The notes: generated by a model not told the origin, from the sequence alone. Positions 287 through 64,000 are shown, counted from the first letter of the stretch. The stretch is 64,000 bases of DNA from Patescibacteria group bacterium (GCA_041749335.1 JBGTBM010000010.1:68533-132532); one strand, 5' to 3'. A program made the numbers and translations.

Positions 287-1402
287 CTATTCTTTGTTTG
301 CAAATTTTTCATAACTTCCAAGAGAAGAAAAATTTATTTCAAAATTTAACTCATTAATTTTATCTATCCGCACAGAATCTATGCCGACTTCTCGCAGTTT
401 TTCATATTTTAGAAGCTCGCCCGGCCTGATTTCTAGCACATCTCTCAATATCCACCTGCCTAATTCTTTATTAGAATAAGACATTAAAGCTTTCCCGCCA
501 GCCTGGCAGATTTTTGACTTCATGCTGTTGCCATCCGGCAGCCTCAGCATAAATGGAGTCTCCCTGTCAGGAAAAAATTTTGGATAATTCTTATGTATAT
601 TTGCGGGCACTGGTATATATATTTCATCTAAATGTCTTGTTCTGCCTCCAGCATTCCATTGATTGAGCCCGCTTTTACTAAAAACCTCCATGTTCTTCCC
701 GTATAAAGGCAAATATATTGTATCTATTATTCTCTTTTTGTCCTCAAAAACCAATTCTTCTCTATTATAAATCTTCATGATATTATCAAGCGGATCTTTA
801 ATTATCTTAATATCAAAATTATATTCTATGGGGCTTGTATTAAATCTTTTTGTAAGTGTACTTTTAGAAAGAAGGAATGAATATTCATTATTATTATCCT
901 GAAACTTTATCGAGCTTTCAGATTTCTTTATTATTCTAATTTTTTCAATATTTATTAAATTTAACGGCTCTTCATAAATAAGAAACTTATTTTTACTTCT
1001 TAATACACAGTGGTAAATTGAATCTTTTATTCCATGGGCGTTATTTGTGAATTTAATCCTTTCATTTCTAAGTTGAGCTATTTTATATATTAAATCCTTT
1101 TCCTTTAGGTTCTTATACATCTTTCTTTCGCGGTTAAATTCAGCTATTTTTTGAAATGTCTTATTGTTTCCTAATAAAAATGTTTTTAATCCGATTCCGA
1201 GGCTTTGTTTTTTTGCATCAACGGATACATCGCTTCTTGATAAATCTTCAGCATTAAATGCACGGCAAAATATTTTTTCAGCAATTCTATAATAAAGATA
1301 TGGAGTGGGTGAATCAGAGAATAGATTAGAAAGGCTTCCAACTACCGTCAGAAACTTTATATAAAATTCTTTTTCTTGTTTTTTCTGATTTTTATAAAAC
1401 AT
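287..1402 (-). CDS. Putative Type II restriction endonuclease, the partner of the adjacent C5-methyltransferase.
   Basis: A 371-aa ORF lies 4 nt downstream of the MTase gene on the same strand and directly upstream of vsr. No conserved catalytic motif was confidently recognised, so the call rests on its position in the M-R-V arrangement. Confidence 0.5.
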   Translation of the reverse strand: MFYKNQKKQEKEFYIKFLTVVGSLSNLFSDSPTPYLYYRIAEKIFCRAFNAEDLSRSDVSVDAKKQSLGIGLKTFLLGNNKTFQKIAEFNRERKMYKNLKEKDLIYKIAQLRNERIKFTNNAHGIKDSIYHCVLRSKNKFLIYEEPLNLINIEKIRIIKKSESSIKFQDNNNEYSFLLSKSTLTKRFNTSPIEYNFDIKIIKDPLDNIMKIYNREELVFEDKKRIIDTIYLPLYGKNMEVFSKSGLNQWNAGGRTRHLDEIYIPVPANIHKNYPKFFPDRETPFMLRLPDGNSMKSKICQAGGKALMSYSNKELGRWILRDVLEIRPGELLKYEKLREVGIDSVRIDKINELNFEINFSSLGSYEKFANKE

Positions 1403-1406
1403 TTAA

Positions 1407-2408
1407 TTATCTTAATGCTTTTGCAACATTTTTTGCTATTCGCTCTACCACTGTAACGGTAACCGAATTCCCTATTTGCTTATATAGGTGTGAATCCGAC
1501 ATATTGGGAAGCTTATAGCTGTCTGGAAATCCTTGAAGTTTTGCACACTCCTTCGGAGTTAATTTCCTTATCCCATTGTCATCCATAATGATAGGAACAT
1601 TATGCCCGCCCATTCCCATATTCGCAGTTAATGTTGGACATACTCTCTTCTTATTATCTCTCACATATTTTCGCCTCCATTGATAAACGGTATTTTTTGA
1701 AACAATTTCATTTTTCAATTTATTAAACAGTGGCTTACCGCTATAATAATATTCTTTATCCACACTTTTTTCTAATAAATTACGCACATTTAAAATTAAT
1801 TTTATTTTTTTGGGAAATGCAAATTTATTAAAGGCAATTTTGGAATCAAAGCCAACAATATATATTCTTTCTCTATTTTGTGGGATATTGCCATACTCCA
1901 TGCTATTTAAAACTTTTGATTTTATATAATATCCTAAATCTTCAAGCGTTTCTTTTATTATTCTATAGGTTTTTCCATTATCGTGTCCTTTCAAATTCTT
2001 TACATTTTCAAGAAACAAAACCTCTGGTTTTTTTTCTTTAATAATTCTTGTAATATCAAAAAATAAATTACCTCTTTTTTTGTCTTTAAATCCTTTTCTA
2101 TGTCCGGCTATAGAAAAGGGTTGGCATGGAAATCCAGCTAATAGAACATTAAAATTTGGCAAATCTTTAGATTTTATATTCGATATGCTTCTTAACGTCA
2201 TTGATGTTTCCGGAAAATTTAAATCATAGGTGTATTTACAATATTTATCAAAATCATTAGCATACACGGTTTCAAAACCTGCTTTTTCGAATCCCAATCT
2301 AATCCCGCCTATTCCAGCAAATAAATCTATAGATTTTAAATTCTTAATATTATTTTTCATTATATAAATTATTTCTTCCATTTTACCCCAAATCCCATTT
2401 CCCGCCAA
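1407..2408 (-). CDS. DNA (cytosine-5)-methyltransferase, Type II R-M methylase.
   Basis: Canonical m5C-MTase motifs are present: I DLFAGIGG, IV GFPCQPFS (catalytic Cys), VI LFLENVKNL, VIII QNRERIYIVG, X QIGNSVTV. Confidence 0.9.
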   Translation of the reverse strand: MAGNGIWGKMEEIIYIMKNNIKNLKSIDLFAGIGGIRLGFEKAGFETVYANDFDKYCKYTYDLNFPETSMTLRSISNIKSKDLPNFNVLLAGFPCQPFSIAGHRKGFKDKKRGNLFFDITRIIKEKKPEVLFLENVKNLKGHDNGKTYRIIKETLEDLGYYIKSKVLNSMEYGNIPQNRERIYIVGFDSKIAFNKFAFPKKIKLILNVRNLLEKSVDKEYYYSGKPLFNKLKNEIVSKNTVYQWRRKYVRDNKKRVCPTLTANMGMGGHNVPIIMDDNGIRKLTPKECAKLQGFPDSYKLPNMSDSHLYKQIGNSVTVTVVERIAKNVAKALR

Positions 2409-24236: not shown

Positions 24237-26291
24237 TTATAACCCCAATTCTGTGCTAATTTCCTGCATTGATTTTATACTAATTTCAATAAATTCATCT
24301 AGAGTTAGTCCAATTTTTTCACATTCCGAAATTCTTGCTCGATCAATATTGGCAGCAAATGATTTATCTTTTAATTTCTTTTTAACAGATGAAGTTTTCA
24401 GCTGATTAATATTTTTATCCGGCCGCACTAAAACAGCAGCATAGATTATTCCAGTAATAGCCTCCGAACACGCCAACGCATAATCTAAATCAGTCTCTCG
24501 GGATTTTTCTCCAGCATATTCATAATTGTGGGCCTTTATGGCGTTAATGCCGACTTCCGGAAAATTTATTTCATTTAATATTTTTTCTGATTGCTTGGTA
24601 TGTTGATCCGGCTCCTCCTTGGTCTTTTCCCAATCAATATCATGAAGCAAGCCAACCATGCCCCATAAGTCTTCATTTTTTCCCAGCTTTTTTGCCAAAG
24701 ATCGCATAATGACTTCGGTCTCTCTGGAATGTAATAAATTTTTTTTCTCTTTTATGTATTTATTCAATAATTGCTTGCCAATTTCTCTTTTGATATTAAA
24801 TTTTTGATTCTCTAAATTATCGCCTTGTACAATATTTGTGTTCTTGGGTCTCATTAGGGGAAAAATAACTGTCTCTCTGATAGGTTTATCCACTAAATAA
24901 GAAAATAGTCTTTCTGAAAGTCCAAAGCCACAAGTAGGCGGCATTCCATATTCCAATGCTTCGACAAAATCCTTATCATGCATTTGTGCTTCTTCGTCTC
25001 CCGATTTTCTTAGTTCTGCCTGTTGCTTAAATCTATTTTCTTGATCAATCGGATCATTAAGCTCGGAATATCCGTTGCCAAGCTCGCTGCCGGCTATAAT
25101 AATTTGAAATCTCTCGACTAGCCTATTATCATCTTCTTTACGCTTTGATAAAGGAGAAACCTCAACAGGATGATTAATTATAAACGCCGGTCCAGAAATT
25201 TCTTTTCTTAATTTCTTCCATAAAATATCCATCAATCTTCCTTTAGCTATCTTTTTTTCAATTTTTATATCTAATTCTTCGCATTTTTTTTGTAAATCAG
25301 CTTCTGAGGCCTCTAATACATCAATCCCGAGTTTTTGCTTGATTTCCGATGCATAGTCAAGTTGAGTCCATCTTTGTGCAAAATCAATATCGTAACCTTT
25401 AATCTTGAATTTTAATGTACCAAAAGTTTTCTTAATTATCTCTTTATACATTTCTTCCGTAAGCTTCATTCCATCTTTATAGTCAGCATAAGCCATATAA
25501 AATTCCATTTGCGTATAATCCTGTAAATGTTCAGTGTCTATTCCTTCGTTTCTAAATTGCCTGCCTATTTCAAATGTTTTCTCATAGCCTGCAATCATTA
25601 ATTTCTTTTGCCATAGTTCACCCATTGATATTCTCAGATATAGATCAATATTTAACGCATTGTGATGAGTTTTAAAGGGTTTTGCATCAGCACCCCCCGG
25701 TGTTACCTCTAAAACAGGAGTTTCTACCTCTAAAAAGCCTTTCTGTATCAAAAAACGACGTATATTTTGCCAAAATAAAGCTTTTTTCTTAAAAATATCT
25801 TTTAATTGCGGATTAAATAGAATATCTAAATACCTTTTTCTTAATTTTTCCTCTTCGTCTTTAATTCCATGCCATTTTTCAGGCAATGATTTTAATGCTT
25901 TTGCCAGAATACTATATTCTTTTACCATCAAAGTTTTTTCACCTTTTTTAGTGATAAATAAATGCCCCGCAACCTGCAAATAATCACCAACCTCAATCGC
26001 GCGCAAAAGCCGATATTTTTCTTTTCCTACTTCTTTTTCACTAAAAAATATTTGGATATTTCCACTGCCATCCTCAAGATTAGAAAATGTTGCCTTGCCG
26101 TGCCGGCGCATTAATCTTAAGCGCCCGCATAAAATAATTTCAACTGCCAATAAATCTTCAAAATTATTTATTACTTCATTGATCATATTAGTCCTTTCGC
26201 CCCTTGAGGGATATGGATTAATTTTATGATCTTTAATCGTTTCTAAATTCTGCTTGCGAATTTCTTCAATATTTTTACTATTTTGTAGCAT
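24237..26291 (-). CDS. lysS: Lysyl-tRNA synthetase (class II) fused to a C-terminal HD-domain phosphohydrolase module.
   Basis: OB-fold anticodon domain, then class II motifs FEIGRQFRNEGID...MEFYMAY and ...GFGLSERL...FPLMRP (about aa 1-495). An extra ~190 aa follow with LLHSRE...(28 aa)...GLLHDIDW...H...H...D, which is an HD signature. Confidence 0.85.
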   Translation of the reverse strand: MLQNSKNIEEIRKQNLETIKDHKINPYPSRGERTNMINEVINNFEDLLAVEIILCGRLRLMRRHGKATFSNLEDGSGNIQIFFSEKEVGKEKYRLLRAIEVGDYLQVAGHLFITKKGEKTLMVKEYSILAKALKSLPEKWHGIKDEEEKLRKRYLDILFNPQLKDIFKKKALFWQNIRRFLIQKGFLEVETPVLEVTPGGADAKPFKTHHNALNIDLYLRISMGELWQKKLMIAGYEKTFEIGRQFRNEGIDTEHLQDYTQMEFYMAYADYKDGMKLTEEMYKEIIKKTFGTLKFKIKGYDIDFAQRWTQLDYASEIKQKLGIDVLEASEADLQKKCEELDIKIEKKIAKGRLMDILWKKLRKEISGPAFIINHPVEVSPLSKRKEDDNRLVERFQIIIAGSELGNGYSELNDPIDQENRFKQQAELRKSGDEEAQMHDKDFVEALEYGMPPTCGFGLSERLFSYLVDKPIRETVIFPLMRPKNTNIVQGDNLENQKFNIKREIGKQLLNKYIKEKKNLLHSRETEVIMRSLAKKLGKNEDLWGMVGLLHDIDWEKTKEEPDQHTKQSEKILNEINFPEVGINAIKAHNYEYAGEKSRETDLDYALACSEAITGIIYAAVLVRPDKNINQLKTSSVKKKLKDKSFAANIDRARISECEKIGLTLDEFIEISIKSMQEISTELGL

Positions 26292-31055: not shown

Positions 31056-32114
31056 TTATTTCGGTACTATTTCATCTCCCATAGTAACCAAAACATCTTT
31101 TAAATTATCAATATCTTCTAATATCACTCCAGTGCCTCTTACTACACAGGTCAACGGATCATTGGCTAAATATACTGGCATTAAGGTTTGTTCCGAAATT
31201 AACTTATCCAGACCTCTCAATAAACTTCCTCCTCCCGCTATAATTATTCCCTTTTTCATAATATCTGATAACAATTCCGGAGGAGTCTCCTCAATGGTCA
31301 TTTTTACATTATCTACAATATGGTATACCGATCTGGAAATTGCCTTACGCACATCTTCATCATTGACTTTAATTTCTTTTGGCAATCCAGTAATTAAATC
31401 TCTACCCCTCATTGAAGTTTCTAGCGGCTCTTTTAATTTACACGCAGATCCAATAGCTATCTTTATTTCTTCTGCTGTTCTTTCACCTAGTAATATATTA
31501 AATTCTTCTCGCGCATATTGAATAATATTTTCGTTCATTTCATCCCCGGCAATCCTTAAGGATTTTGAAGTCACAATTCCGCCCAAAGATATTACTGCGA
31601 TTTCTGTCGTCCCTCCCCCAATGTCAACTATCATGCTTCCAGCCGCGTCCTGTATGGGCAAGCGAGCGCCGATAGCCGCAGCCATGGGTTCTTCTACCAA
31701 AAACGTCTGCCTAGCGCCTGCATTCTTTGCCGCATCTTCTACAGCCTTTTTTTCCACCTCAGTTACGCCAGAAGGAATACCGATTACTACTCTAGGGCGT
31801 GGAAATATAGTAAATCCCCCTTGATGAACTTTTTCGATAAAATATTTAAGCATTTGTTCAGTAGTTTCAAAATCTGAAACAACGCCATCTACCAAGGGGC
31901 GAGAGACAATAATATGAGAAGGTGTTTTCCCAACCATTTTTCGTGCTTCACTGCCAATTGCCAAAATCTGTCCGGTTCTTTTATTAATCGCCACTACTGA
32001 AGGCTCATTGATGACAATGCCTTCATCCTTTGTATAAACCAAGGTATTGGCGGTTCCCAAATCAATCCCAATATCCTTAGAAAATCTTCCCAATATATTA
32101 TTTAAAATTGACAT
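31056..32114 (-). CDS. mreB: Actin-like rod-shape protein MreB (copy 1).
   Basis: Actin-fold motifs DLGTANT, GxP, and DIGGGTTE. Confidence 0.9.
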   Translation of the reverse strand: MSILNNILGRFSKDIGIDLGTANTLVYTKDEGIVINEPSVVAINKRTGQILAIGSEARKMVGKTPSHIIVSRPLVDGVVSDFETTEQMLKYFIEKVHQGGFTIFPRPRVVIGIPSGVTEVEKKAVEDAAKNAGARQTFLVEEPMAAAIGARLPIQDAAGSMIVDIGGGTTEIAVISLGGIVTSKSLRIAGDEMNENIIQYAREEFNILLGERTAEEIKIAIGSACKLKEPLETSMRGRDLITGLPKEIKVNDEDVRKAISRSVYHIVDNVKMTIEETPPELLSDIMKKGIIIAGGGSLLRGLDKLISEQTLMPVYLANDPLTCVVRGTGVILEDIDNLKDVLVTMGDEIVPK

Positions 32115-38696: not shown

Positions 38697-39707
38697 TTAT
38701 TTTTTAGTCGACAAGATACTTCTCTTGTAAGAATCCAAATTTTCCAAAGCCGTACCCGTTCCTTTAACAACGCACAACAGAGGATCGTCAGCCACATAGC
38801 ATGGTACTCCGGTAACCTTTGTTATTAATTCGCTTAAATTGCGTAATAGCGCGCCTCCGCCGGTTAAAACCATGCCCTTGTCAATTACATCAGCAGAAAG
38901 CTCGGGTGGAGTTTCTTGCAAAACTAATTTTACTGTTTGAATAATCTCCCGCAATTGATCTTGGATTGCTTCCGATATTTCATTAGTACATATTTTAATA
39001 GTTTTGGGCAGTCCCGAAATCATATCTCGCCCTTTAATTTCCATACATCTTTCTTTTTTGATAGGGATCGCGGCTCCAATCTTAATCTTAATATCCTCTG
39101 CTGTTCTATCTCCCACTGCCAAATTATGTTTTTTTCTAATATAATCTGCAATTGCCTGATCTAACTTATTGCCCGCGACTCGCGCCGAATTAGCTGCCAC
39201 GATTCCTCCTAATGAAATTACTGCTACTTCAGTGGTTCCCCCGCCAATATCAATTACCATATTACCGCTTGATTGAGCAATGGGAATACCAGCCCCAATA
39301 GCTGCCGCCACCGGTTCTTTAATTACGTAAGCCGCCTTAGCTCCCGCTTGCAATGTAGCATCGATAACCGCTCTTCTTTCCGTACTAGTAATCCCGGCAG
39401 GAATAGATACCATCACTTCCGGCCGAAATATCCTCACATTGCCGATCGCTTTGGTAATAAAATATTTTAACATCGCTTCAGTCACGCGATAATCAGCAAT
39501 TACTCCGTCTTTAAGCGGACGTGAAGCAACAATAGAATCAGGAGTTCTGCCTAGCATTTTTTTTGCTTCATTGCCAACCGCAAGAATTGAATTATCGTCA
39601 AGAGAAATCGCCACTACCGATGGTTCATCAATTACAATTCCTCGATTGGGAACATAAACTACCGTATTAGCCGTACCCAAATCAATTCCAACTTTTTTTA
39701 CAAACAT
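38697..39707 (-). CDS. mreB: Actin-like MreB paralog (copy 2).
   Basis: DLGTANTVVYV, DIGGGTTEVAV, and about 55 % identity to copy 1. Confidence 0.85.
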   Translation of the reverse strand: MFVKKVGIDLGTANTVVYVPNRGIVIDEPSVVAISLDDNSILAVGNEAKKMLGRTPDSIVASRPLKDGVIADYRVTEAMLKYFITKAIGNVRIFRPEVMVSIPAGITSTERRAVIDATLQAGAKAAYVIKEPVAAAIGAGIPIAQSSGNMVIDIGGGTTEVAVISLGGIVAANSARVAGNKLDQAIADYIRKKHNLAVGDRTAEDIKIKIGAAIPIKKERCMEIKGRDMISGLPKTIKICTNEISEAIQDQLREIIQTVKLVLQETPPELSADVIDKGMVLTGGGALLRNLSELITKVTGVPCYVADDPLLCVVKGTGTALENLDSYKRSILSTKK

Positions 39708-48514: not shown

Positions 48515-49777
48515 TTATGTTTGCATCATTTTTACCACTCTCCTTAAAACACCATGAATGACATCTTCCTCTCCCGCCAAATCAATTGCTAGATTTGCCA
48601 ATGCCATAGGAGCAATGTCTTGTTGATCAATTAATTTTTTTGTTTGATCAATAATATTTACAACGTCACCCGGTTTAATAAAATCTACCTTGGGTGGTTT
48701 TGAAAACGGTAAATTTTTTATCCATTTATCCGATTCCAGCAATGACTTTATGCCCGGCAGAACACTGCCTCCTCCGCATAGCATAATTTTAGAAGGTAAT
48801 AAATCAACATTGGTAAATTCGCTTAAGGCTAATTCAACTCCTGAAAGCCAAACTCTACAATCAGAATCCAATATGTCCTTAATTCGATGCATTTTATCCG
48901 CTTGTAAATTATTATTGGAATAATTTATTTTAAGCTTTTCGGCTTCATTAAAATTTGTTCCTAATTCATTTGATATTCTTTTAGTAAATGCTCTGCCGCC
49001 CAATGCAAACATCTTGGTGCCTTCAAGACCGCCATTTCTAACTACCGCTATATCAGTGGTCCCCCCGCCTACATCAATAAATATCGCGCTAAATTCCACT
49101 GAATCTTCAATTCCAGTACAGCGTGCAACCGCATAGGGCTCGGCTGCAATAGATAAAAGATCCATATCTAATTCGGTAGCAATTGTTTGTAGCGCTCCAA
49201 GATGTACTAGCGGAGCAAAGGCGTTAAAAATTGAAACCGCAACATCTTTCCCTTGAAATCCTAAGGGGTTGGTGATTTTATATCCATCAATTTTTACATC
49301 AACAACCGCAGCGTTAATTAATTTTACGTCTATCTCATTATGGCCGGTTTCCCACGAAAGCTGTTTACGAACTTTATCAAAAGCTTTCCATTGAACCTTG
49401 TGGATAATATTCTTTAATTCAGATAAATCAATTTTTGATTTAGGCTTAGCTCGCTCGTATTTAACGGTAGTGGTTGTACCCTTTACTAATTCTCCGGCAA
49501 TTCCCAAAATAACCTGATCGGGCAGCACCTGTGCCTCTTCTTTAGCCGTGATAATCGCTTTTTCACAGGTATTAACCACCCCTTCGATATTAGTAACTCC
49601 CCCCGATTGCATGTCGCCTAACTTTTGCCTTTCCCTGCCGACTCCAATAACTTTGCCTTTGCCATTTTCCAAATCAATTTCAAAAATTAAAGCTTTAACC
49701 ACTTCTGTCCCAATATCTAGAGCTAGAGCATAATTACCCAATTTTTCTCTGCTTAATAATTTTTCAAAAAATCCCAT
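48515..49777 (-). CDS. ftsA: Actin-like ATPase, FtsA-like cell-division protein.
   Basis: LDIGTEVVKALIFE (phosphate-1), DVGGGTTDIAV (phosphate-2), and GGGS (adenosine motif) over 420 aa. Confidence 0.6.
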   Translation of the reverse strand: MGFFEKLLSREKLGNYALALDIGTEVVKALIFEIDLENGKGKVIGVGRERQKLGDMQSGGVTNIEGVVNTCEKAIITAKEEAQVLPDQVILGIAGELVKGTTTTVKYERAKPKSKIDLSELKNIIHKVQWKAFDKVRKQLSWETGHNEIDVKLINAAVVDVKIDGYKITNPLGFQGKDVAVSIFNAFAPLVHLGALQTIATELDMDLLSIAAEPYAVARCTGIEDSVEFSAIFIDVGGGTTDIAVVRNGGLEGTKMFALGGRAFTKRISNELGTNFNEAEKLKINYSNNNLQADKMHRIKDILDSDCRVWLSGVELALSEFTNVDLLPSKIMLCGGGSVLPGIKSLLESDKWIKNLPFSKPPKVDFIKPGDVVNIIDQTKKLIDQQDIAPMALANLAIDLAGEEDVIHGVLRRVVKMMQT

Positions 49778-51673: not shown

Positions 51674-51895
51674 TTATTCTGACTCTAATCTTGATTTAGT
51701 AATATCTCTATTAAGTGATTTTTCTTGATTCAATAATTCATCCAATTCACCCTCTTCAAGCTCCTTTTTCTTTTCTAGTTCCTTGATTTGCTTATCAATT
51801 TCCCTTATGCTTTTTTCCTTTTTTCCTATTTCATCTTCCAAATCTTCCAGTTCGCCCTCTAATACCCTTGTCGGGTCATTAAAATATGCTATCAT
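51674..51895 (-). CDS. Small acidic coiled-coil protein (hypothetical).
   Basis: 73 aa of E/K-rich heptad-like sequence. Confidence 0.4.
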   Translation of the reverse strand: MIAYFNDPTRVLEGELEDLEDEIGKKEKSIREIDKQIKELEKKKELEEGELDELLNQEKSLNRDITKSRLESE

Positions 51896-52839
51896 TTTCT
51901 TTTTTTCCTAATTAATAAATATGTTATCAGCCAATATATTACAAAATATGTTATAAATAAAAACCAGCCAATATTGGTATGGAAATATGTCACCGCCACT
52001 CTGGGATCATAATAAATTCCAACTAAATATAATAAGTAAATCCGAATGATATTGATAATAAACATACCGATCAGTCCGATTATGCCCGCCATAACCGCCT
52101 TAAACCAACTGATTTCTTTTCGATCAATAACCACGATTAGAATAAACAAAAATAAAAATAAACTCAAACCTTCAATTCCCGAACACGGGCTTTGAATCAG
52201 GGCTGTAAAATTACTAGCGCCTAAAAGCGGCCCTCCTGTCTGATAGCGCACCACGACATCTTCAAAGCTGAATCTTAATAAAAAAGCTACCACATCGGTC
52301 GTTGCCCGTGCGAATATTTCCCAATATTGTTTAAAAAACATCGAGATTTGATAAAAAACAATCGCCAAGATAAAAGACATGGCAACCGAGTTTTTATAAT
52401 CTTTAATAAATTGGAATCTGAATAATGCCAAAAATAAGAAAATAACTGCTAGCAGGGGCAATAAATATCTAAGTCCAATCACAAAATATTTATAATCAAA
52501 GATTAAATTAGGATTTTCAATAATTATTTTTTTCAAAAAATAAAATAAAATAAATGCCAATAAATGAAGTGGAAAAAAGATTGCAAAACCTTTAATATTA
52601 ATTTTAAATTTTTTAATATTTAAAATTCTTCTTCTTTCAAAGGCGATAAAAATAATAATAATTAAAAATAGTATAATAACCGACGTCCTACCCAATACAT
52701 TTAATTGAGCTAGCATCTTTGATTCAGGATATAAATGTTTTTGGGCATATAAAATTCCAACAAAAAGCATGAAGCTATAAAACATTCTCCTTAACGCTGG
52801 GTTTTTTATTTTTTTTACGATTGATTTGATTATGTTCAT
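51892..52839 (-). CDS. Exosortase/archaeosortase-family polytopic membrane protein (putative).
   Basis: About 8 TM helices, with a conserved Cys in LIQSPCSGIEGLS (exosortase CSG motif) followed about 45 aa later by NIIRIY (Asn and Arg). Confidence 0.45.
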   Translation of the reverse strand: MNIIKSIVKKIKNPALRRMFYSFMLFVGILYAQKHLYPESKMLAQLNVLGRTSVIILFLIIIIFIAFERRRILNIKKFKINIKGFAIFFPLHLLAFILFYFLKKIIIENPNLIFDYKYFVIGLRYLLPLLAVIFLFLALFRFQFIKDYKNSVAMSFILAIVFYQISMFFKQYWEIFARATTDVVAFLLRFSFEDVVVRYQTGGPLLGASNFTALIQSPCSGIEGLSLFLFLFILIVVIDRKEISWFKAVMAGIIGLIGMFIINIIRIYLLYLVGIYYDPRVAVTYFHTNIGWFLFITYFVIYWLITYLLIRKKRK

Positions 52840-53956: not shown

Positions 53957-55468
53957 CTATTTTTTCAATTTTATCACTTGTCCGGGATCAATATTATTGT
54001 TCTCTGTTTTTTTAGTATTTTTATTTATAGTTTTTTTATCGCTTAACAACTCGGCGAAAGCCTTTTTGAACGGTTGGTGATTTTCTTCTTTTTTAGGCTT
54101 GGCGGGCGCATTTAATTTATCTATTTTTGATTTATTTGTTTTCCCGCTATAAGAATTATATGAAGATTCTTTATTTTTTGGCTTTTCTTCCATTATACCG
54201 CTCCATTTGGCTATTTTTTCTTCTACAATTGATCTTTCGGTAGAATATCTTTCACGCGAAACGCTTATTATTTTTTCTTTATGTCCCTCTTCAGCCCAAG
54301 TCGGAGCCAAGGTTATGGCAGAAAAAGGTTGACTAGCAACGCCATCAATCATCAATTTTAAATATATATGAAACTTAGTTAAATTAACTAAATCATTTTC
54401 TTCAAAAATCGGCTCATATTCTTTGGCAATAAATTCAGAATCCGCAGCACCTATTCTAAAATTTATTATAGTTCCAACATTTCCAAATACAGCAAATTTA
54501 ACTTTTTCTGATAACTGATCAATATATTGATGCGCCATTATTAAATCTAAACGATACTTTCTAGCTTCAGATAAAATATCGGCAAAGCTATCGGTAGCAA
54601 AATTTTGAAACTCATCAACGTATAAATAAAAATCTGATCGCTTTTCTTCACTAATATCAACTCGGCTCATTGCCGCTAATTGTAACTTAGTAATCATCAT
54701 CGCGCCAAAAAGTGCCGCCGCATCCTCACCAACTTTTCCCTTGGCAAGATTTAGCAGCAATATTTTTTTATTATCCATAATTTCTCGCATATTTAGAGTA
54801 GATTTTGTCTGACCAACAATATTTCTAATTAGCGAAATAGATAGAAACTGGCCAACCTTATTTTGGATCGGAGCAATTGCTTCGGCCATAAATCTATCGG
54901 GATATTTTGAAAATTCTTCAACCCAAAATTGTTTTACTACCGGATCAACAATGCTAACAATCACTTTTTTTCTATATTCTTTATCAACAAGCATTCTCAT
55001 GGTACCCAATAACGTACTGCCCGGATAATCAAGCAGCGCTAAAATTGTATTTCTTAAAACATATTCTAACCTTGGTCCCCAGGAATCAGCCCAAATCTTT
55101 TTAAATACTCCAACTAATCCCGAAGCTACTAAATGTTTATATTGGGGATCGACATTTTCCATCACATTAAATGCAATCGGATAATCCACATCTCCAGGAT
55201 CAAAATATATAACATCGTTAATTCTTTCAGAAGGAACATAATTTAGCATTTTTTCCGCAAATTCTCCATGTGGATCGACCACGCACAAACCATTGCCATT
55301 TTTAATATCAGAAATAACCATATTTTCAAGCAAGGTAGTTTTACCCATACCCGTTTTCCCAATAATATAAACATGCCTTCTTCTATCATCAGTTTTAATT
55401 CCAAAAACCGTCTCCTTGCCGCGAAAGTCGGTTTTACCTAATAAGCTAATTTGTTCTTCAGATTTCAT
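53957..55468 (-). CDS. TraD/TraG/VirD4-family coupling-protein-like P-loop ATPase.
   Basis: Walker A IIGKTGMGKTT, Walker B LYVDEFQNF, a TrwB-like core, and a Lys-rich C-terminal tail. Confidence 0.65.
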   Translation of the reverse strand: MKSEEQISLLGKTDFRGKETVFGIKTDDRRRHVYIIGKTGMGKTTLLENMVISDIKNGNGLCVVDPHGEFAEKMLNYVPSERINDVIYFDPGDVDYPIAFNVMENVDPQYKHLVASGLVGVFKKIWADSWGPRLEYVLRNTILALLDYPGSTLLGTMRMLVDKEYRKKVIVSIVDPVVKQFWVEEFSKYPDRFMAEAIAPIQNKVGQFLSISLIRNIVGQTKSTLNMREIMDNKKILLLNLAKGKVGEDAAALFGAMMITKLQLAAMSRVDISEEKRSDFYLYVDEFQNFATDSFADILSEARKYRLDLIMAHQYIDQLSEKVKFAVFGNVGTIINFRIGAADSEFIAKEYEPIFEENDLVNLTKFHIYLKLMIDGVASQPFSAITLAPTWAEEGHKEKIISVSRERYSTERSIVEEKIAKWSGIMEEKPKNKESSYNSYSGKTNKSKIDKLNAPAKPKKEENHQPFKKAFAELLSDKKTINKNTKKTENNNIDPGQVIKLKK

Positions 55469-55472
55469 AATT

Positions 55473-56738
55473 TTATTCTATGGGTAGATCGGTTGGGGGC
55501 ATACTCTTTCTTGATTCAGCTCTAACCAAAGAAGGAGCTTTGACTGAAATATAAGGAAAATGATAAATAGTTGCCAGTTCTTCGACATTAAAAACAAATG
55601 ATTTAGAACCACCGGTATCTCTGGCTTTATATCTTCTTACAATATTGTTTTGTAATCTCGGTGCTAGCTGTTTTGCAAAATATGGCCTTAGTGTCCAATA
55701 CTTTTTATTAGGCACCAAGCTATTTAAATTTTGCGACCCAAACGCCTTAAAGGCTCCAAATAAAGGATTTATTCCCTTCTTACTTGAAAATGCGACCTTT
55801 TTACCAATATACATCACTCTTAATTTTACCTTAAAGCCAATTTTAGCAACATTGCCTTCGATTGCCTCTACAATTTCTCTTTGTCCCGGAGTTAAATATT
55901 GCATTTCATTTATCATGTCATCCCTTTTAGTGCTTTTTTGATCTGCCGCGCCTGCAGGTTCGATAAGTCCAACTACCATATGGATTCCTTGAATAAGCAT
56001 TGGAGTTTTAGTCTTTTCTTTTTTGCCAATCAACTTATTAACAATTTTTTCTCCGCCCTTTTTCCATTCATCGCCAACGGGCTCTAAAATCATTTGTACC
56101 CACATTTGCTCATCAACCGACATTGTGCTCATAACCTCTAACAAATTAGATAGCGGATCCATAAACTCTTTTTCAATATCGTCTGTAAAAAATTTATAAG
56201 TTTTTATCGGATATGGATCCGGCTTACTCAAAGTTAGCTCCGCTCCAAATACATCATATGTATCATTTGGATACTCTTTGGGAATAAATTGTGCGTAATC
56301 CTCTACTTCCATTATTTCCGCTTCTGGATATTGAGAGTAAATATTTGCCTCGACAAAATCCCTAAAATAATCCGGAGTTCTGATAATAAATCTGATATTG
56401 CCGCCGATACTTACTAATTCAAAAGTAAAAGTATCCTGTGTTTTACCTTTAAACCATTTATCAACGAAAGTTGGTCGGGATTTTATCGCATGCAATCCGG
56501 AAAATATTAATTCCATATATTTAGGGTTCTTTTCATTAGTGTCGGGTACTGTAACAGCCAAGAATATATGATTAATAGAGCTGGAATATTTTTCTCTCTT
56601 TTTTAACAACCAAAGGTAATAGATAACCGCGGCTAAAACAAAAAAAAGAATCCACCATGAATATCTAAAAACAATAGAAAAATAAGCCCAATATTCCTTT
56701 AAATATTCAAAAATTTCAAATTTTGGAAATTCAATCAT
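55473..56738 (-). CDS. Membrane-anchored protein of unknown function, translationally coupled to the TraD-like ATPase.
   Basis: 421 aa with two N-terminal TM helices. Its stop overlaps the ATPase start region. Confidence 0.55.
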   Translation of the reverse strand: MIEFPKFEIFEYLKEYWAYFSIVFRYSWWILFFVLAAVIYYLWLLKKREKYSSSINHIFLAVTVPDTNEKNPKYMELIFSGLHAIKSRPTFVDKWFKGKTQDTFTFELVSIGGNIRFIIRTPDYFRDFVEANIYSQYPEAEIMEVEDYAQFIPKEYPNDTYDVFGAELTLSKPDPYPIKTYKFFTDDIEKEFMDPLSNLLEVMSTMSVDEQMWVQMILEPVGDEWKKGGEKIVNKLIGKKEKTKTPMLIQGIHMVVGLIEPAGAADQKSTKRDDMINEMQYLTPGQREIVEAIEGNVAKIGFKVKLRVMYIGKKVAFSSKKGINPLFGAFKAFGSQNLNSLVPNKKYWTLRPYFAKQLAPRLQNNIVRRYKARDTGGSKSFVFNVEELATIYHFPYISVKAPSLVRAESRKSMPPTDLPIE

Positions 56739-56766: not shown

Positions 56767-57849
56767 TTATTTTTTTTCAACAGTATATTTTCTATCAGCG
56801 GTTTTGATAAACTTATCTTTATTTTGTAGAGCTAAAACAACAGTATTTCTTTTCACAATCCTCTGTTTCAATACAATATCAATCAACTCTTCTTTGGATA
56901 AAGGGCCGTCGGCTTTATTCAAAACATTCTCAATAACTTGGGCTACTGTTCCCGGATTATATCCCCACTCAACTAAAGCATACATACCCCTTCCAACTAA
57001 AACAAAACGCTTGTCTTTAATTAATTCATTATGAACAGTTTGAGAAATAGCTCTTTTGGCGCTAAAGTTCGCCTCGTTTATTTTTTTTGTTATTTCAGTA
57101 AAATGCAATGGCTTGCCATTTTTCTTAAGCACAAGATATGCTTTATCTTTCACACCCTTAGGAATAATTTCACTCCATGACGACAAACCCCATTCCCGAT
57201 ATGGATTACTAAGCACTCTTTTGCTTAAATTAAGATAAGACTTAACCGCTTTTTGATCTTCAACGCCAATCTCGCGAGAAACGGAACAATCTAATACGGA
57301 TTTTATCGCTTCTTCTTCAGTAAGTGGTTTTTTACTTTCAGTTAGCCTTTCCACTAAAGCATCAACAACCTTTTGAGGAATTTCAAGCTTAGCATTTTTT
57401 AATCCCCAAGCTTTTCTGGTATATTCTGTTTCATCAAAACATTCAAATTTATTACTTAAATTTAAAATAAATTCAACCACATTTTCATGAATTTGGTTAA
57501 CACCTGCCCGATCATTAAATTCCTTGATTAAGCTAACGTGCTCTACCATATTACCATTATCTTTAATAATTTCTTCTAATAATTCTTCGCATTCAAATAG
57601 TAAATTTATGTTGTCGCTTTTCTTTAAATCTTTAATAGTAGCCGACTCTATCTGTCTTACTCGTTCTCGCGTAATTCCATGGAATTTACCAATTTCTTCT
57701 AGTGTTTGCCGGTCTTTGTTATCTAAACCAAATCTCTTAACAATAATATCCTTAGTTCTTGGCTTTAGGCTTGAGATCAATGAAAATACCGCCTCGGTAG
57801 GATTTACTTGGCCATTGTTTATCTCGATTTTTTCTGTATTAATTTGCAT
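56767..57849 (-). CDS. Sigma-70 region-4-like HTH domain protein with a C-terminal HARE-HTH-like domain.
   Basis: The N-terminus DIIVKRFGL...TLEEIGKFHGITRERVRQIE matches a sigma-70 r4 helix-turn-helix. The C-terminus HFTEI...VHNELIKDKRFVLVGRGMYALVEWGY resembles HARE-HTH. Confidence 0.55.
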   Translation of the reverse strand: MQINTEKIEINNGQVNPTEAVFSLISSLKPRTKDIIVKRFGLDNKDRQTLEEIGKFHGITRERVRQIESATIKDLKKSDNINLLFECEELLEEIIKDNGNMVEHVSLIKEFNDRAGVNQIHENVVEFILNLSNKFECFDETEYTRKAWGLKNAKLEIPQKVVDALVERLTESKKPLTEEEAIKSVLDCSVSREIGVEDQKAVKSYLNLSKRVLSNPYREWGLSSWSEIIPKGVKDKAYLVLKKNGKPLHFTEITKKINEANFSAKRAISQTVHNELIKDKRFVLVGRGMYALVEWGYNPGTVAQVIENVLNKADGPLSKEELIDIVLKQRIVKRNTVVLALQNKDKFIKTADRKYTVEKK

Positions 57850-57976
57850 ATATTTTCCTTCTATTAACAGATAATTTTATTTGCTAAAGTAAATGTATCA
57901 TAAATATTATATATTGTCAATACCCATAATACTTTCTTTATAATAGCACTCATTTAATATATGTCAAGAGTCTAAC

Positions 57977-59872: not shown

Positions 59873-60439
59873 CTATTTTTTCTTCTTTTTGGGAGTAATT
59901 TTTTTCTTACTAGATTTTTCTTTTGATGTTTTTTTATCCTTAAGTTTCTTAATTGGAGGTTTTTTAGCTAATTTAGATTTATCCACCGCTTCAACTTTTA
60001 CTTTAGGCGCCATGGTGAGTAATAATTTTAAAATTTGATCAAGCTTTTCGCTTAATTTATTTAATTGATTACTTGATTGAACCTCGCCGCCGCTTTTATT
60101 TTCCTTGCTGGATTGTTTACCAAAACAGTTATCACAATATACCGGCTTGCCGCTGGTGGGCTTAAAGGGAACTTCACATCTTTTACCACATTCATCACAT
60201 ACTGCTTCATACCTGGATTTTCTTTTGAAATTTCCTCTATCAAAATCTCCCCGGCTTGATTGTTTTCTGTCATCCTTGTGAAATTTAAAACATCGGTCGC
60301 AATATATTGGTTTATCGCCACTGGGTTTAAAAGGCACTTCACATCTTTTACCGCATTCAGCGCACACCGCTTGATGCATTTCTGATCGATTATCTCTTCT
60401 GTCACTGTTAAATTTTCTATCTCGATTAAATCTGCCCAT
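59873..60439 (-). CDS. Tandem zinc-ribbon protein with a Lys-rich C-terminal tail (hypothetical nucleic-acid or gyrase-binding protein).
   Basis: Two copies of CxxCGKRCEVPFKPxxxKPxYCDxCF, then a KKKK-rich tail. Confidence 0.6.
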   Translation of the reverse strand: MGRFNRDRKFNSDRRDNRSEMHQAVCAECGKRCEVPFKPSGDKPIYCDRCFKFHKDDRKQSSRGDFDRGNFKRKSRYEAVCDECGKRCEVPFKPTSGKPVYCDNCFGKQSSKENKSGGEVQSSNQLNKLSEKLDQILKLLLTMAPKVKVEAVDKSKLAKKPPIKKLKDKKTSKEKSSKKKITPKKKKK

Positions 60440-61533: not shown

Positions 61534-62028
61534 TCACATTCTATTATCCCACAATTTACCTTTTTTTCTTATAAATTCTCCATCTTTTCTAGTATAGAAT
61601 GACTCTTGAATAAATGATAAAAATTCATTGAGCTTAATTTCATTTGTCATATATCTTATATCTGGGTAAATGACAGTAAAATGAGGTTTATGCGGTTTAT
61701 CATTTTCTAATTTATCATAATAAAATCTGAATTTGTCCGGATCGCTTTCCTTATTATCATCGGTGCAAATTGTAATCAACTTATAATGACCCGAAATAAA
61801 CCTATAAGTATATGATTTAACTTGATTATCTTCAAACAGTTCCGCAATTGTTATATAACCTACTTTATCCTTTAGAATAATACCTTCATCTTCTGCTTTT
61901 ATATTAACGTGATAAGGGCAAAAAAATTTATTGTTCATCCGCTTTACCGGAATACTATTAATATTTTCTATAAATAAATGATTAAAATCACTTAAAATCC
62001 CTTTGATTTGAGCTTCTCTATTCGCCAT
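61534..62028 (-). CDS. Hypothetical protein (third gene of a 3-gene overlapping operon).
   Basis: 164-aa ORF. Its start overlaps the upstream gene by 11 nt. Confidence 0.5.
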   Translation of the reverse strand: MANREAQIKGILSDFNHLFIENINSIPVKRMNNKFFCPYHVNIKAEDEGIILKDKVGYITIAELFEDNQVKSYTYRFISGHYKLITICTDDNKESDPDKFRFYYDKLENDKPHKPHFTVIYPDIRYMTNEIKLNEFLSFIQESFYTRKDGEFIRKKGKLWDNRM

Positions 62029-62374
62029 ATTTATCTTTTCGAACTACATTTCTATACAAATTCATCCAAGTTATTATTTCAGGTGATGAAGAAACTTTTC
62101 CCTGCATCCATTTTTTATAATATGTATTAGATTGAGCTCCATATTTATCTTCAAAATCTTTTATTTTTTGAAATGCTAAATTATTTGAAATAATATCTTT
62201 ATAATAATAAAGAATATCATCAATTTTAGATTGATCTTCAAAATCAAAAGATGACCCATGATAATTATTTTTATTATCATTCTTATATAAGAATTCTTTT
62301 GGTTTTATATTAGAGAAGGAATTTTTATCATCTCCAAGGTTAAAATCATTAAGATATTGGGTTATTACTTCCAT
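62018..62374 (-). CDS. Hypothetical protein (second gene of the operon).
   Basis: 118-aa ORF. Confidence 0.5.
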   Translation of the reverse strand: MEVITQYLNDFNLGDDKNSFSNIKPKEFLYKNDNKNNYHGSSFDFEDQSKIDDILYYYKDIISNNLAFQKIKDFEDKYGAQSNTYYKKWMQGKVSSSPEIITWMNLYRNVVRKDKYGE

Positions 62375-62382
62375 AAAATATA

Positions 62383-63042
62383 TTAAATTAAATTATCTAA
62401 ATTATTCGCTAGGTTGTTATAAATTTCATCAAACTCTTTACGTAAATCTGCGATTTTTGGCAACTTTTTATTTGAAAAATGAGCATTCAAATCAACTGAG
62501 ATTGATTTTGTTGGTTCTAAGTTTTGATTGTTGCGAGGCTTTATTTTTAAATCATATCTTATATTATCCTCTTTATATATAATATCTATCCCTGCACTAA
62601 CAACATCCAATTCTTTAATTTTGTCTTTATTAATAAATTCTTTTGCAATAAACATACCACTATTTTTAGTTCCATTCTTTAGATCAAAAATCGAAAGAAT
62701 ATTAAAACCATAATCTTTAACATCATTTTCAGTAATTAAATTATTTATTTTATTTACTAAACTATAAAAATTACTTTTATCTCTTGACAAATAAGAAGAT
62801 ATACTATTATCAGCAATAATAATCCGATTTTGTTCCTTTATTATATTTATTGATACTTGATTATTTGGATCAAAAACTAATAGTAATTCTGGAAACTGAG
62901 TTACCACCGGTTTGCTATCACCATAAATCCCCTCTAAAATATCTTTGATACCATTTATATTTATATTATAAATATCAATATTTTGTTTGGGTATGATAAC
63001 CGCATTAATTTGTACAGTTTGTTGATTTTGAATTTTAGCCAT
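62383..63042 (-). CDS. Hypothetical protein (first gene of the operon).
   Basis: 219-aa ORF. Confidence 0.5.
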   Translation of the reverse strand: MAKIQNQQTVQINAVIIPKQNIDIYNININGIKDILEGIYGDSKPVVTQFPELLLVFDPNNQVSINIIKEQNRIIIADNSISSYLSRDKSNFYSLVNKINNLITENDVKDYGFNILSIFDLKNGTKNSGMFIAKEFINKDKIKELDVVSAGIDIIYKEDNIRYDLKIKPRNNQNLEPTKSISVDLNAHFSNKKLPKIADLRKEFDEIYNNLANNLDNLI

Positions 63043-63451
63043 ATTTATTAATTATTCATTTTATTAATTATACCAATATATAAATTATAAATATATATCA
63101 TTAAAACCTACTCTTTTATTACAAATTTGTAAATATTTTATTAAAAAACCGGATGCCTGATAGTCGTAAGGAGGTAACGACATCAGAACACCCAGTTTTT
63201 TTATTATAACAAATCGATAGTTAAAACAAATTCTTTACCTTTTTATTTAAGTCATGAAATTTATTGTTTAATATTGTTTAAAACACTTCATTGGTCTTGC
63301 TTAACAATACCTTTTCCGACAGCTTTAAATAATTCTACTAGCTTGCTACCTTTTTCTCTGGCTTCCTCTTGGGATATATCCTTGTTGAAATTCTTTTTGT
63401 AAAGCTTCCTAAATTCCTCTATTTGGTTTTCTGTAAGTAGTGTCATAAAAT

Positions 63452-63616
63452 CACTTTTTAATTTCACTCGTCTTTTTTTTTATTTCTATTGTCTATTTGC
63501 AATAGTAAATCAAAAAATCCTACCAAATTATCACGAGCTTCTCGAGCTTCATCTTCAGATAATTTCTTTCCGCTCAGTTCGCTATAAAATTCTATATCAA
63601 TATCATCATCTACCAT
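63452..63616 (-). CDS. Small ORF (54 aa) with an (S)EDEAREARDNLVGFFDLL motif, followed by an out-of-frame paralogous fragment.
   Basis: Manual translation MVDDDIDIEFYSELSGKKLSEDEAREARDNLVGFFDLLLQIDNRNKKKTSEIKK. A second copy of the motif (EEAREKGSKLVELF) follows in another frame with no start codon. Confidence 0.25.
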
Positions 63617-63624
63617 TATATATT

Positions 63625-64000
63625 TTATTTTAATTTTTTTAAATTATCTGAGATAATATCTTTTATTTTTCCAAAATTATAACCATTTCTAACATAATAT
63701 AATTTCATTTCATTTTTATCACATTTTGCTTTCTTTGTTTTATCTCTTAGCTGTTGTTTTTTATAATATTTTTCTCCACCAAAATAATCTACCGGCTCAA
63801 AATGTTGTTTCCCTTGATATTCAAATGCAATATTTAAAGCAGGAATACAAACATCCAAATGTTGCCTGCCCAGCCATTTAGGTGAATAATGATTAACTAC
63901 ATTATATTTATCACCAACATATTTTTTTATTTTATAATATAATTCTGTCTCAGATATCCAACCTTCTCCTACCTTAGGAAGATCTAAATCTTCTCTGAGC
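63625..64000 (-). CDS. Partial PD-(D/E)xK / DUF559-like nuclease-domain protein. The N-terminus is beyond the window end.
   Basis: The ORF continues in frame to position 64000 (...LREDLDLPKVGEGWISETELYYKIKKYVGDKYNVVNHYSPKWLGRQHLDVCIPALNIAFEYQGKQHFEP...). The D...EYQGKQH pattern resembles the DUF559/Vsr-like endonuclease core. Confidence 0.4.
   Translation of the reverse strand, partial: LREDLDLPKVGEGWISETELYYKIKKYVGDKYNVVNHYSPKWLGRQHLDVCIPALNIAFEYQGKQHFEPVDYFGGEKYYKKQQLRDKTKKAKCDKNEMKLYYVRNGYNFGKIKDIISDNLKKLK

Follow-up and report, generated by a model that had tools for sequence, protein, structure and literature searches.

A putative VirD4/TrwB-type coupling ATPase of Patescibacteria is encoded by two adjoining genes, one of them for a DUF8128 protein

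What could an ATPase of the type that couples substrates to conjugation machinery be doing among housekeeping genes of a bacterial chromosome? The question is raised by a 64-kb stretch of DNA from a Patescibacteria group bacterium (GCA_041749335.1 JBGTBM010000010.1:68533-132532; hereafter the window, over whose whole length all coordinates are counted), where two adjacent genes on the minus strand, flanked by neighbours of the same orientation, fill positions 53957-56738 exactly. The upstream gene (55473-56738) encodes a 421-aa protein without a P-loop, which belongs to the family DUF8128 (PF26449), and the downstream gene (53957-55468) encodes a 503-aa ATPase of the type IV coupling protein (T4CP) kind. 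Genes for VirD4-like proteins are common in this phylum: 5713 of them were reported from 2918 of 3035 Patescibacteria genomes, only 148 near virB4, which was itself present in 2417 of the 3035 genomes and usually lay far from the VirD4-like genes; an exaptation of the latter has been suggested, and a partner domain was not discussed (Quinonero-Coronel et al., 2025, PMC12102498). The analysis presented here led us to regard the two genes as a single functional unit, a phylum-wide and chromosomally fixed T4CP homolog that is split in two and probably serves a type IV secretion system (T4SS) encoded elsewhere.

Since public assemblies contain near-identical copies of both proteins (the ATPase at 100% and its partner at 93% identity) as well as thousands of homologs, both open reading frames (ORFs) represent real genes, as proposed in the original prediction of two adjacent genes for 421 and 503 aa, which was made from the sequence. 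The overlap of stop and start regions described there was not found: the TAA of the DUF8128 gene (55473-55475) is separated by a 4-nt spacer, AATT (55469-55472), from the ATG of the ATPase gene at 55468. The start codon of mnmA directly abuts the stop codon of the ATPase gene, and the genes after it overlap or are separated by 1 nt. Genes are packed this closely throughout the array, so that a short distance in itself argues only weakly for a specific coupling of the two.

By its sequence and its predicted structure, the 503-aa protein belongs to the VirD4/TrwB coupling-protein family; it lacks a transmembrane (TM) segment and stands apart from FtsK and HerA. The Pfam domain TrwB_AAD_bind (PF10412) matches aa 26-321 at 38.1 bits (cutoff 20.5; E 1.2e-9), accompanied by a sub-threshold trace of TraG-D_C, and the best NCBIfam matches are TraD and VirD4-like models; as these reach 48 bits against an equivalog cutoff of 366, the protein falls into no named subfamily. 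A family profile built from an alignment of 31 sequences retrieved only TrwB (1e-6) and DotL (7e-5) among PDB sequences. With the R388 proteins of NC_028464 as references, hhalign matched the ATPase to TrwB at 94% probability (E = 1.3e-7) over 264 columns reaching from Walker A to past Walker B, and gave no match to TrwK/VirB4 (1.6%). Neither AAA_10 nor CagE of the VirB4 models in Pfam matched the ATPase, and TIGR00929 scored 15.7 bits against a cutoff of 643. The Walker A motif GKTGMGKT (aa 37-44; 55337-55360) and the Walker B motif FYLYVDE (aa 280-286; 54611-54631) are indeed arranged as in coupling proteins and align to those of TrwB, and the residues G37-K43, D285 and E286 are invariant in the 31 relatives. 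In the AlphaFold2 (AF2) model, which has a predicted local distance difference test score (pLDDT) of 80, a RecA-like core is combined with helices at aa 108-232 between the Walker motifs; an all-alpha insertion at this place is typical of T4CPs. The best Foldseek match of this model was TrwB (3e-11; TM-score normalised to the target 0.63-0.67), followed by Cag-beta and DotL and only then by HerA and the C-terminal domain of VirB4. The Lys-rich tail seen in the original prediction (aa ~425-503; 53960-54196) is present and is modelled as disordered (pLDDT < 50). No hydrophobic segment was detected in the 503 aa, and one occurs in only 3 of 120 relatives. The assignment to TraD, VirD4 and TrwB has thereby held, also against a grouping with FtsK or HerA.

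This assignment bears on two other explanations of the locus. A membrane-tethered ATPase of the FtsK-HerA superfamily, encoded in the same core array as FtsA-like, MreB and PBP2 genes that lie within 25 kb, might act as an FtsK/SpoIIIE-like DNA pump in chromosome segregation or division. However, FtsK_SpoIIIE (PF01580) matches the ATPase at 15.8 bits, below its cutoff of 24, and only in the P-loop; FtsK is absent from the PDB sequence matches of the profile and from the top 50 fold matches; and with the T4CP-typical insertion and a non-essential ortholog (see below) we consider such a pump very unlikely. Even more improbable is a HerA/MADS-type module for defence against phages, although the PADLOC mad8 profile matches the ATPase at 2.9e-17, HerA profiles match it more weakly and HerA structures are among its fold matches. 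The DUF87 match covers only aa 30-79, the P-loop region, and the fold scores of HerA (TM-score normalised to the query, TMq, 0.37-0.47) are below those of TrwB (0.53-0.56). No gene for NurA, Sir2 or a nuclease adjoins the pair, PADLOC gave no match at all for the DUF8128 partner and no mad match for the upstream neighbour, and the mad8-like ATPase thus lies outside any mad cluster, in a housekeeping context. Its near-universal, syntenic and vertical core-genome behaviour, moreover, is unlike that of defence islands.

The 421-aa protein has 2512 homologs, all of them from assemblies of Patescibacteria or the Candidate Phyla Radiation (CPR) where a source was named. PF26449 is carried by 114 of its 120 best homologs, and an identical product on a public contig (L001) is recorded as PF26449:DUF8128; an exhaustive profile search with DUF8128 recovered 3800 clusters at 50% identity. 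With Pfam and NCBIfam libraries that do not contain PF26449, hmmscan returned nothing for the protein and only noise for 40 members of its alignment at E up to 10. The DUF8128 profile had no match among PDB sequences, and our literature search found no paper on 'DUF8128'. Where two N-terminal TM helices had been predicted, we observed one hydrophobic stretch (aa ~17-46 in a Kyte-Doolittle scan; 56601-56690), modelled by AF2 as a single long helix (aa 9-54), which would be the membrane anchor; a single hydrophobic segment is likewise found in 214 of 261 full-length DUF8128 relatives. The sequence KKREK following the helix suggests, by the positive-inside rule, that a short N-terminus is outside and the bulk of the protein cytoplasmic. 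In the AF2 model (pLDDT 82, predicted TM-score 0.76) the N-terminal helix leads into alpha/beta domains with a disordered insert. The C-terminus bears the conserved motifs EELATIYHFP ... PPTDLPIE (55476-55580), in which E386, E387, A389, H393, P395, P415, L418 and P419 are invariant in the alignment; this C-terminal motif is present in 239 of the 261 relatives.

Foldseek points to a relation of this protein to VirB4. Each of its top 13 matches in the PDB was a chain of TrwK/VirB4 from the R388 T4SS (E = 2e-5 to 7.5e-4, probability 0.99-1.0, TMq 0.32-0.40), and these were the only significant PDB fold matches. As no RecA-type ATPase (TrwB, HerA or the isolated C-terminal domain of VirB4) appears in this list, the match would concern the non-ATPase N-terminal part of VirB4. 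Among the predicted viral structures of BFVD, the protein matched gp156 of Bacillus phage G (2.8e-18) together with related Bacillus phage proteins, and gp155 of the same phage (1.7e-7), which Pfam classes as a VirB4-like ATPase. No sequence signal was obtained by hhalign between DUF8128 and TrwK, the VirB4-like ATPase of Shouchella clausii or phage G gp155. The alpha/beta region of DUF8128 is thus predicted, from models, to have a fold like that of the VirB4 N-terminal part.

How the two proteins belong together is seen from homologs in which they are one. With the joined window proteins as query, we found at least 95 single proteins of 834-1197 aa that contain both PF26449 and PF10412. The fused homologs from Patescibacteria share 42-48% identity with the joined query over 93-100% of its length, and their named sources include Gracilibacteria (P0483), Berkelbacteria (P0419) and Saccharimonadia (P0461). 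In the window, counted across the removed stop and start, 62 aa separate the EELAxxHxP motif from Walker A, as compared with a median of 63 in the fused proteins, in which the C-terminal motifs of DUF8128 form the linker into the ATPase. The closely similar spacing indicates that fission took place in the inter-domain linker, at the site of the AATT spacer, and that no residues were lost. The same two domains follow each other in PHROG 5156, a profile of 824 positions with DUF8128 at positions 50-288 and the ATPase at 407-819. Judged from these alignments, the pair is the product of a gene fission and DUF8128 is the detached N-terminal domain of the same coupling-type ATPase. The independent membrane-anchor partner of the original prediction is accordingly replaced by a domain that is part of a single polypeptide in other classes, in phages and on plasmids.

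The fused orthologs of other Patescibacteria classes agree with the window pair in their two domains, their chromosomal site and their neighbours (Sigma70_r4/HARE-HTH or SecDF), and differ in being one gene where the window has two. The three that were inspected are all chromosomal and lie among housekeeping genes. Some genomes with fused orthologs hold two paralogs, as in S. epibionticum and in a Saccharimonadia metagenome-assembled genome (DATIHX010000008.1; L092 3604-9048), where fused DUF8128-ATPase paralogs of 798 and 1015 aa stand in tandem next to SecDF. In S. epibionticum, the essential gene SEML1_0294 (Sigma70_r4 + HARE-HTH, annotated RpoS) is followed by SEML1_0293, whose product of 921 aa has TrwB_AAD_bind at aa 402-719 (Wang et al., 2023, tables of PMC10633639). 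Its length, its domain and its position after SEML1_0294 identify SEML1_0293 as a syntenic fused counterpart of the window pair, and its N-terminal 360-400 residues would correspond to DUF8128, judging from length, synteny and the Saccharimonadia homolog P0461. The second long VirD4-like paralog of this organism, SEML1_0142, is essential (PMC10633639).

Conservation of the arrangement was followed in 81 loci, 80 of them from one genome per GTDB species. The ATPase gene is located immediately downstream of the DUF8128 gene in 70 of these loci, the distance between the two mostly ranging from -8 to +10 nt, and one locus is apparently fused. In 58 of the 81, DUF8128 is preceded by a Sigma70_r4 + HARE-HTH gene, and the order Sigma70_r4/HARE-HTH, DUF8128, ATPase is identical in distant genomes. 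In the window this gene (56767-57849, minus strand, assigned by Pfam) encodes 360 aa and ends 28 nt upstream of the pair, with which it is possibly co-transcribed. Median identity to the window protein is 65% for the ATPase, 51% for the alanyl-tRNA synthetase (AlaRS), 43% for MnmA, 39% for the Sigma70_r4/HARE-HTH protein and 38% for DUF8128. The ATPase half is therefore unusually constrained, and the anchor domain evolves at an ordinary rate. The module is core chromosomal, syntenic, vertically inherited and under strong purifying selection, in agreement with the conserved host function in a core context that had been proposed for it.

Such behaviour leaves little room for a conjugative element or prophage that had integrated here and is now decaying. 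That idea draws on the fused relatives described below, which are found on Bacillaceae and haloarchaeal plasmids and in Bacillus phages; it is in practice refuted by conservation and synteny, and we give it the lowest credence of the explanations considered. Both ORFs are intact with all catalytic motifs present, the ATPase is more conserved across classes than AlaRS, its housekeeping neighbours are conserved as well, the G+C content of the pair (0.34) is the same as that of its surroundings, and no integrase, relaxase or repeats were found within the window. The concern that the pair might occur only on plasmids or prophages elsewhere is thereby answered for the phylum, where the module is core-chromosomal and not a remnant, and holds in part outside it, where fused relatives do lie on such elements. 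According to a Pfam scan of its 40 largest ORFs, the window holds housekeeping genes (aminoacyl-tRNA synthetases, RpoA, MreB, FtsA-like, PBP2, holB and others), and no relaxase, VirB4, pilin or integrase is among them. The absence of other conjugation genes noted in the original prediction thus applies to these window ORFs; it need not extend beyond the window, since 80% of Patescibacteria genomes have a chromosomal T4SS (VirB4) (PMC12102498).

Outside the phylum, one such fused protein is gp156 of Bacillus phage G (825 aa), which hhalign aligned to the DUF8128 profile at 97.8% probability (E = 9e-13) over 312 columns, beginning only after the TM helix, and which tblastn with the ATPase detected at 2e-35; fused proteins of plasmids and phages were detected in this search at 2e-35 to 1e-36. 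The plasmid protein WP_248290882 of S. clausii matched DUF8128 at 97.7%, the fused homolog of phage D6E at 85% probability, and those of SPO1-like phages weakly. Further fused relatives occur on Bacillaceae plasmids, including pBM69 of B. methanolicus (WP_003349917), and on haloarchaeal plasmids. A Replic_Relax gene comes directly after the fused gene on both pBM69 and the S. clausii plasmid, and genes for TcpC, TcpE, a VirB4-like AAA_10 ATPase and a cell-wall hydrolase come next. The slot directly before relaxase and transfer genes is usually held by the coupling protein. By gene order the fused plasmid proteins thus occupy the coupling-protein position, and the occurrence of fused relatives on plasmids and phages indicates a conjugation-type origin of the family. 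A VirB4-like ATPase is encoded on these elements in addition, and the fused protein is thus not simply their VirB4. The plasmid and phage proteins share with the window pair two collinear domains homologous to both window proteins, but are single polypeptides of 825-906 aa with only 22-28% identity to them, and unlike the window pair they stand in a context of mobile-element DNA processing (Replic_Relax, TcpC, TcpE and VirB4-like; ParM-like in an SPO1-like phage). No characterisation of these fused proteins was found in the literature searched.

Two phage loci deserve mention in their own right. Genes gp153-gp156 of phage G (L086 1774-7338) form a T4SS-like set in a lytic jumbo phage, with a TrbL/VirB6-like gp153, the VirB4-like gp155 and the fused gp156. 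In the SPO1-like phage CampHawk, genes 134-128 (L088 759-6284) include one for a fused-type ATPase of 906 aa, flanked by a ParM-like gene on one side and by a Replic_Relax gene ('replication initiation by nicking') on the other, and the pairing of the ATPase with Replic_Relax is common to CampHawk and the Bacillaceae plasmids. Plasmid pLS20 was considered as a prototype for the plasmid arrangement and rejected, as the T4CP encoded there (gene 48) carries a pair of TM helices at the N-terminus and does not neighbour the MobL relaxase. Replic_Relax and Tcp-like genes take their place on the Bacillaceae plasmids that bear the fused gene.

In comparison with the T4CPs (TrwB of R388, VirD4, TraD/TraG, Cag-beta and DotL), the window pair has in common the RecA-like domain with its all-alpha insertion, for which these proteins are the best sequence and fold matches, as well as a membrane tether at the N-terminal end and a flexible C-terminal tail. 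It differs from them in that the ATPase polypeptide has no TM helix, the anchor being supplied in trans by the DUF8128 protein of ~420 aa, whose large cytoplasmic domain is lacking in canonical T4CPs, whereas in fused relatives the one polypeptide carries its own TM helix; in addition, no relaxase or mating-pair-formation gene was seen in the window or in the Patescibacteria loci inspected, and the ATPase gene belongs to the chromosomal core and not to a mobile element. With VirB4 (TrwK, gp155) the pair shares the succession of an N-terminal non-ATPase domain and a C-terminal TrwB-like ATPase, in total ~820 aa, whereas DUF8128 has no sequence similarity to VirB4 N-terminal domains and the ATPase half is VirD4-like by sequence.

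The tail of the ATPase differs among relatives. A C-terminal CxxC...CxxC treble-clef zinc finger (PF23477) is present on 74 of 120 split ATPases and on none of 98 fused proteins, and the tail of the window ATPase is also without it. A stand-alone protein of 188 aa encoded 4.4 kb upstream (59873-60439, minus strand) has two zf_Tbcl_2 fingers of the form CxxC-x17-CxxC (PF23477 at 1.3e-32) and a Lys-rich tail. To judge from these motifs, it possibly acts in trans with the finger-less ATPase tail.

TrwB and VirD4 form hexamers, tethered to the membrane, by which substrates are recruited and passed on to the T4SS; in the R388 structure the N-terminal domain of VirB4 contacts inner-membrane subunits of the T4SS. 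By analogy, the two window polypeptides would reassemble at the membrane, where DUF8128 would tether a hexameric ATPase ring on the cytoplasmic face and might dock it to a channel. ATP hydrolysis would then serve to recruit a macromolecular substrate and to drive it into this membrane channel, and the basic tail, with a zinc finger in many relatives, may engage the substrate. The channel would most likely be the Patescibacteria T4SS (VirB4/VirB6/VirB8/pilins) encoded elsewhere, which is the most economical partner. In S. epibionticum, the essential T4SS cluster has no recognisable coupling protein (PMC10633639).

Several observations weigh against a dedicated T4SS motor made of these two proteins. 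Linked T4SS genes are missing both from the window and from the loci of relatives that were inspected. VirD4-like genes are present in 96% of the genomes as against 80% for VirB4 (PMC12102498), and with VirD4-like proteins in more genomes than VirB4 a dependence of the module on a T4SS is only presumptive. In co-culture, transposon sequencing (Tn-seq) classed SEML1_0293 as non-essential at all time points, whereas the T4SS genes were essential; its normalised reads went from 5817 to 2940 and 1372 while those of its neighbours remained flat (PMC10633639). The step that involves a T4SS partner is weakened by all three. Moreover, about 10 of the 81 loci keep DUF8128 in a SecDF context with no adjacent ATPase, and the VirB4-like fold of DUF8128 is derived from Foldseek with modest TMq values and lacks support at the sequence level. 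The DUF8128 genes downstream of SecDF without an adjacent ATPase belong to Magasanikiibacteriota and others (L032, L037, L061, L066, L070, L076 and L080-L083).

The wider distribution of VirD4-like genes and their near lack of linkage to virB4 also speak for the main competing explanation, in which the module alone, independently of a T4SS, is a nucleic-acid translocase that imports or exports DNA or RNA in nucleotide-scavenging organisms, an idea put forward in the original prediction. Such a role would fit the extreme conservation of the ATPase across classes and its basic tail, to which a treble-clef zinc finger has been added in many split relatives, and a cultivated member of the phylum was reported to take up host RNA by a route left unresolved (2026 preprint, 10.64898/2026.06.21.733656). 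However, no channel component (ComEC or a pore) accompanies the pair at any of the inspected loci, the single TM helix of DUF8128 cannot by itself form a conduit, and S. epibionticum, for which nucleotide acquisition is essential, can do without the ortholog. We therefore judge an autonomous translocase to be rather unlikely, and still prefer the split coupling protein that serves a T4SS. Somewhat less likely again is a more far-reaching proposal, which combines a T4SS-independent phylum-wide translocase, for example a motor for host nucleic acid in nucleotide-auxotrophic epibionts, with an evolutionary intermediate between VirB4 and VirD4 that has retained a VirB4-like N-terminal domain.

With respect to expression, the best promoter-like site in the neighbourhood (57940-57967, minus strand; 11 of 12 matches, with TG) lies upstream of the Sigma70_r4/HARE-HTH gene and is a weakly indicated candidate for the start of an operon-like array; the sites found in the promoter and terminator scan did not exceed the expectation from shuffled sequence.

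Other features of the window were recorded in passing. The sole non-housekeeping set among the 40 largest ORFs scanned with Pfam, and the only defence-type genes seen in the window, is a restriction-modification pair (287-2408, minus strand) of a protein with an NgoFVII-type endonuclease C-terminal domain and a C-5 cytosine methyltransferase. An exosortase/EpsH-family membrane protein (51892-52839, minus strand; Pfam 3.2e-11) is encoded between mnmA and alaS in the same packed array. Unusually, a class II aminoacyl-tRNA synthetase (tRNA-synt_2, Asp/Lys/Asn type; 24237-26291, minus strand) is fused at its C-terminus to an HD phosphohydrolase domain. An interval of 20 kb contains the genes for two MreB paralogs, both of full length, and for an FtsA-like protein with an actin fold (31056-32114, 38697-39707 and 48515-49777, all on the minus strand), and the FtsA-like gene comes after alaS, as it does in distant relatives (L002). 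At 62001-64000 the G+C content falls to 0.25, compared with 0.30-0.41 elsewhere in the window, and the ORFs there (62383-63042) have no Pfam match.

Few 'Patescibacteria-enriched' genes are as widespread as those for VirD4-like proteins, and earlier work had noted only their distance from virB4 and a possible exaptation. Our analysis adds that the adjoining conserved DUF8128 gene encodes the ATPase's own N-terminal domain, with a predicted VirB4-like fold; that the two-domain protein is linked to homologs in phages and, on some Firmicutes plasmids, in the place of the coupling protein; and that it is split into two genes in a large part of the phylum, its ATPase half being more conserved than an aminoacyl-tRNA synthetase. 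The pair is a data point on the relationship between the VirB4 and VirD4 ATPases, and taken alone it represents no new kind of system. It offers a concrete and testable unit for the question of what Patescibacteria move across their membrane, and the Tn-seq results in S. epibionticum imply that a mutant would be viable.

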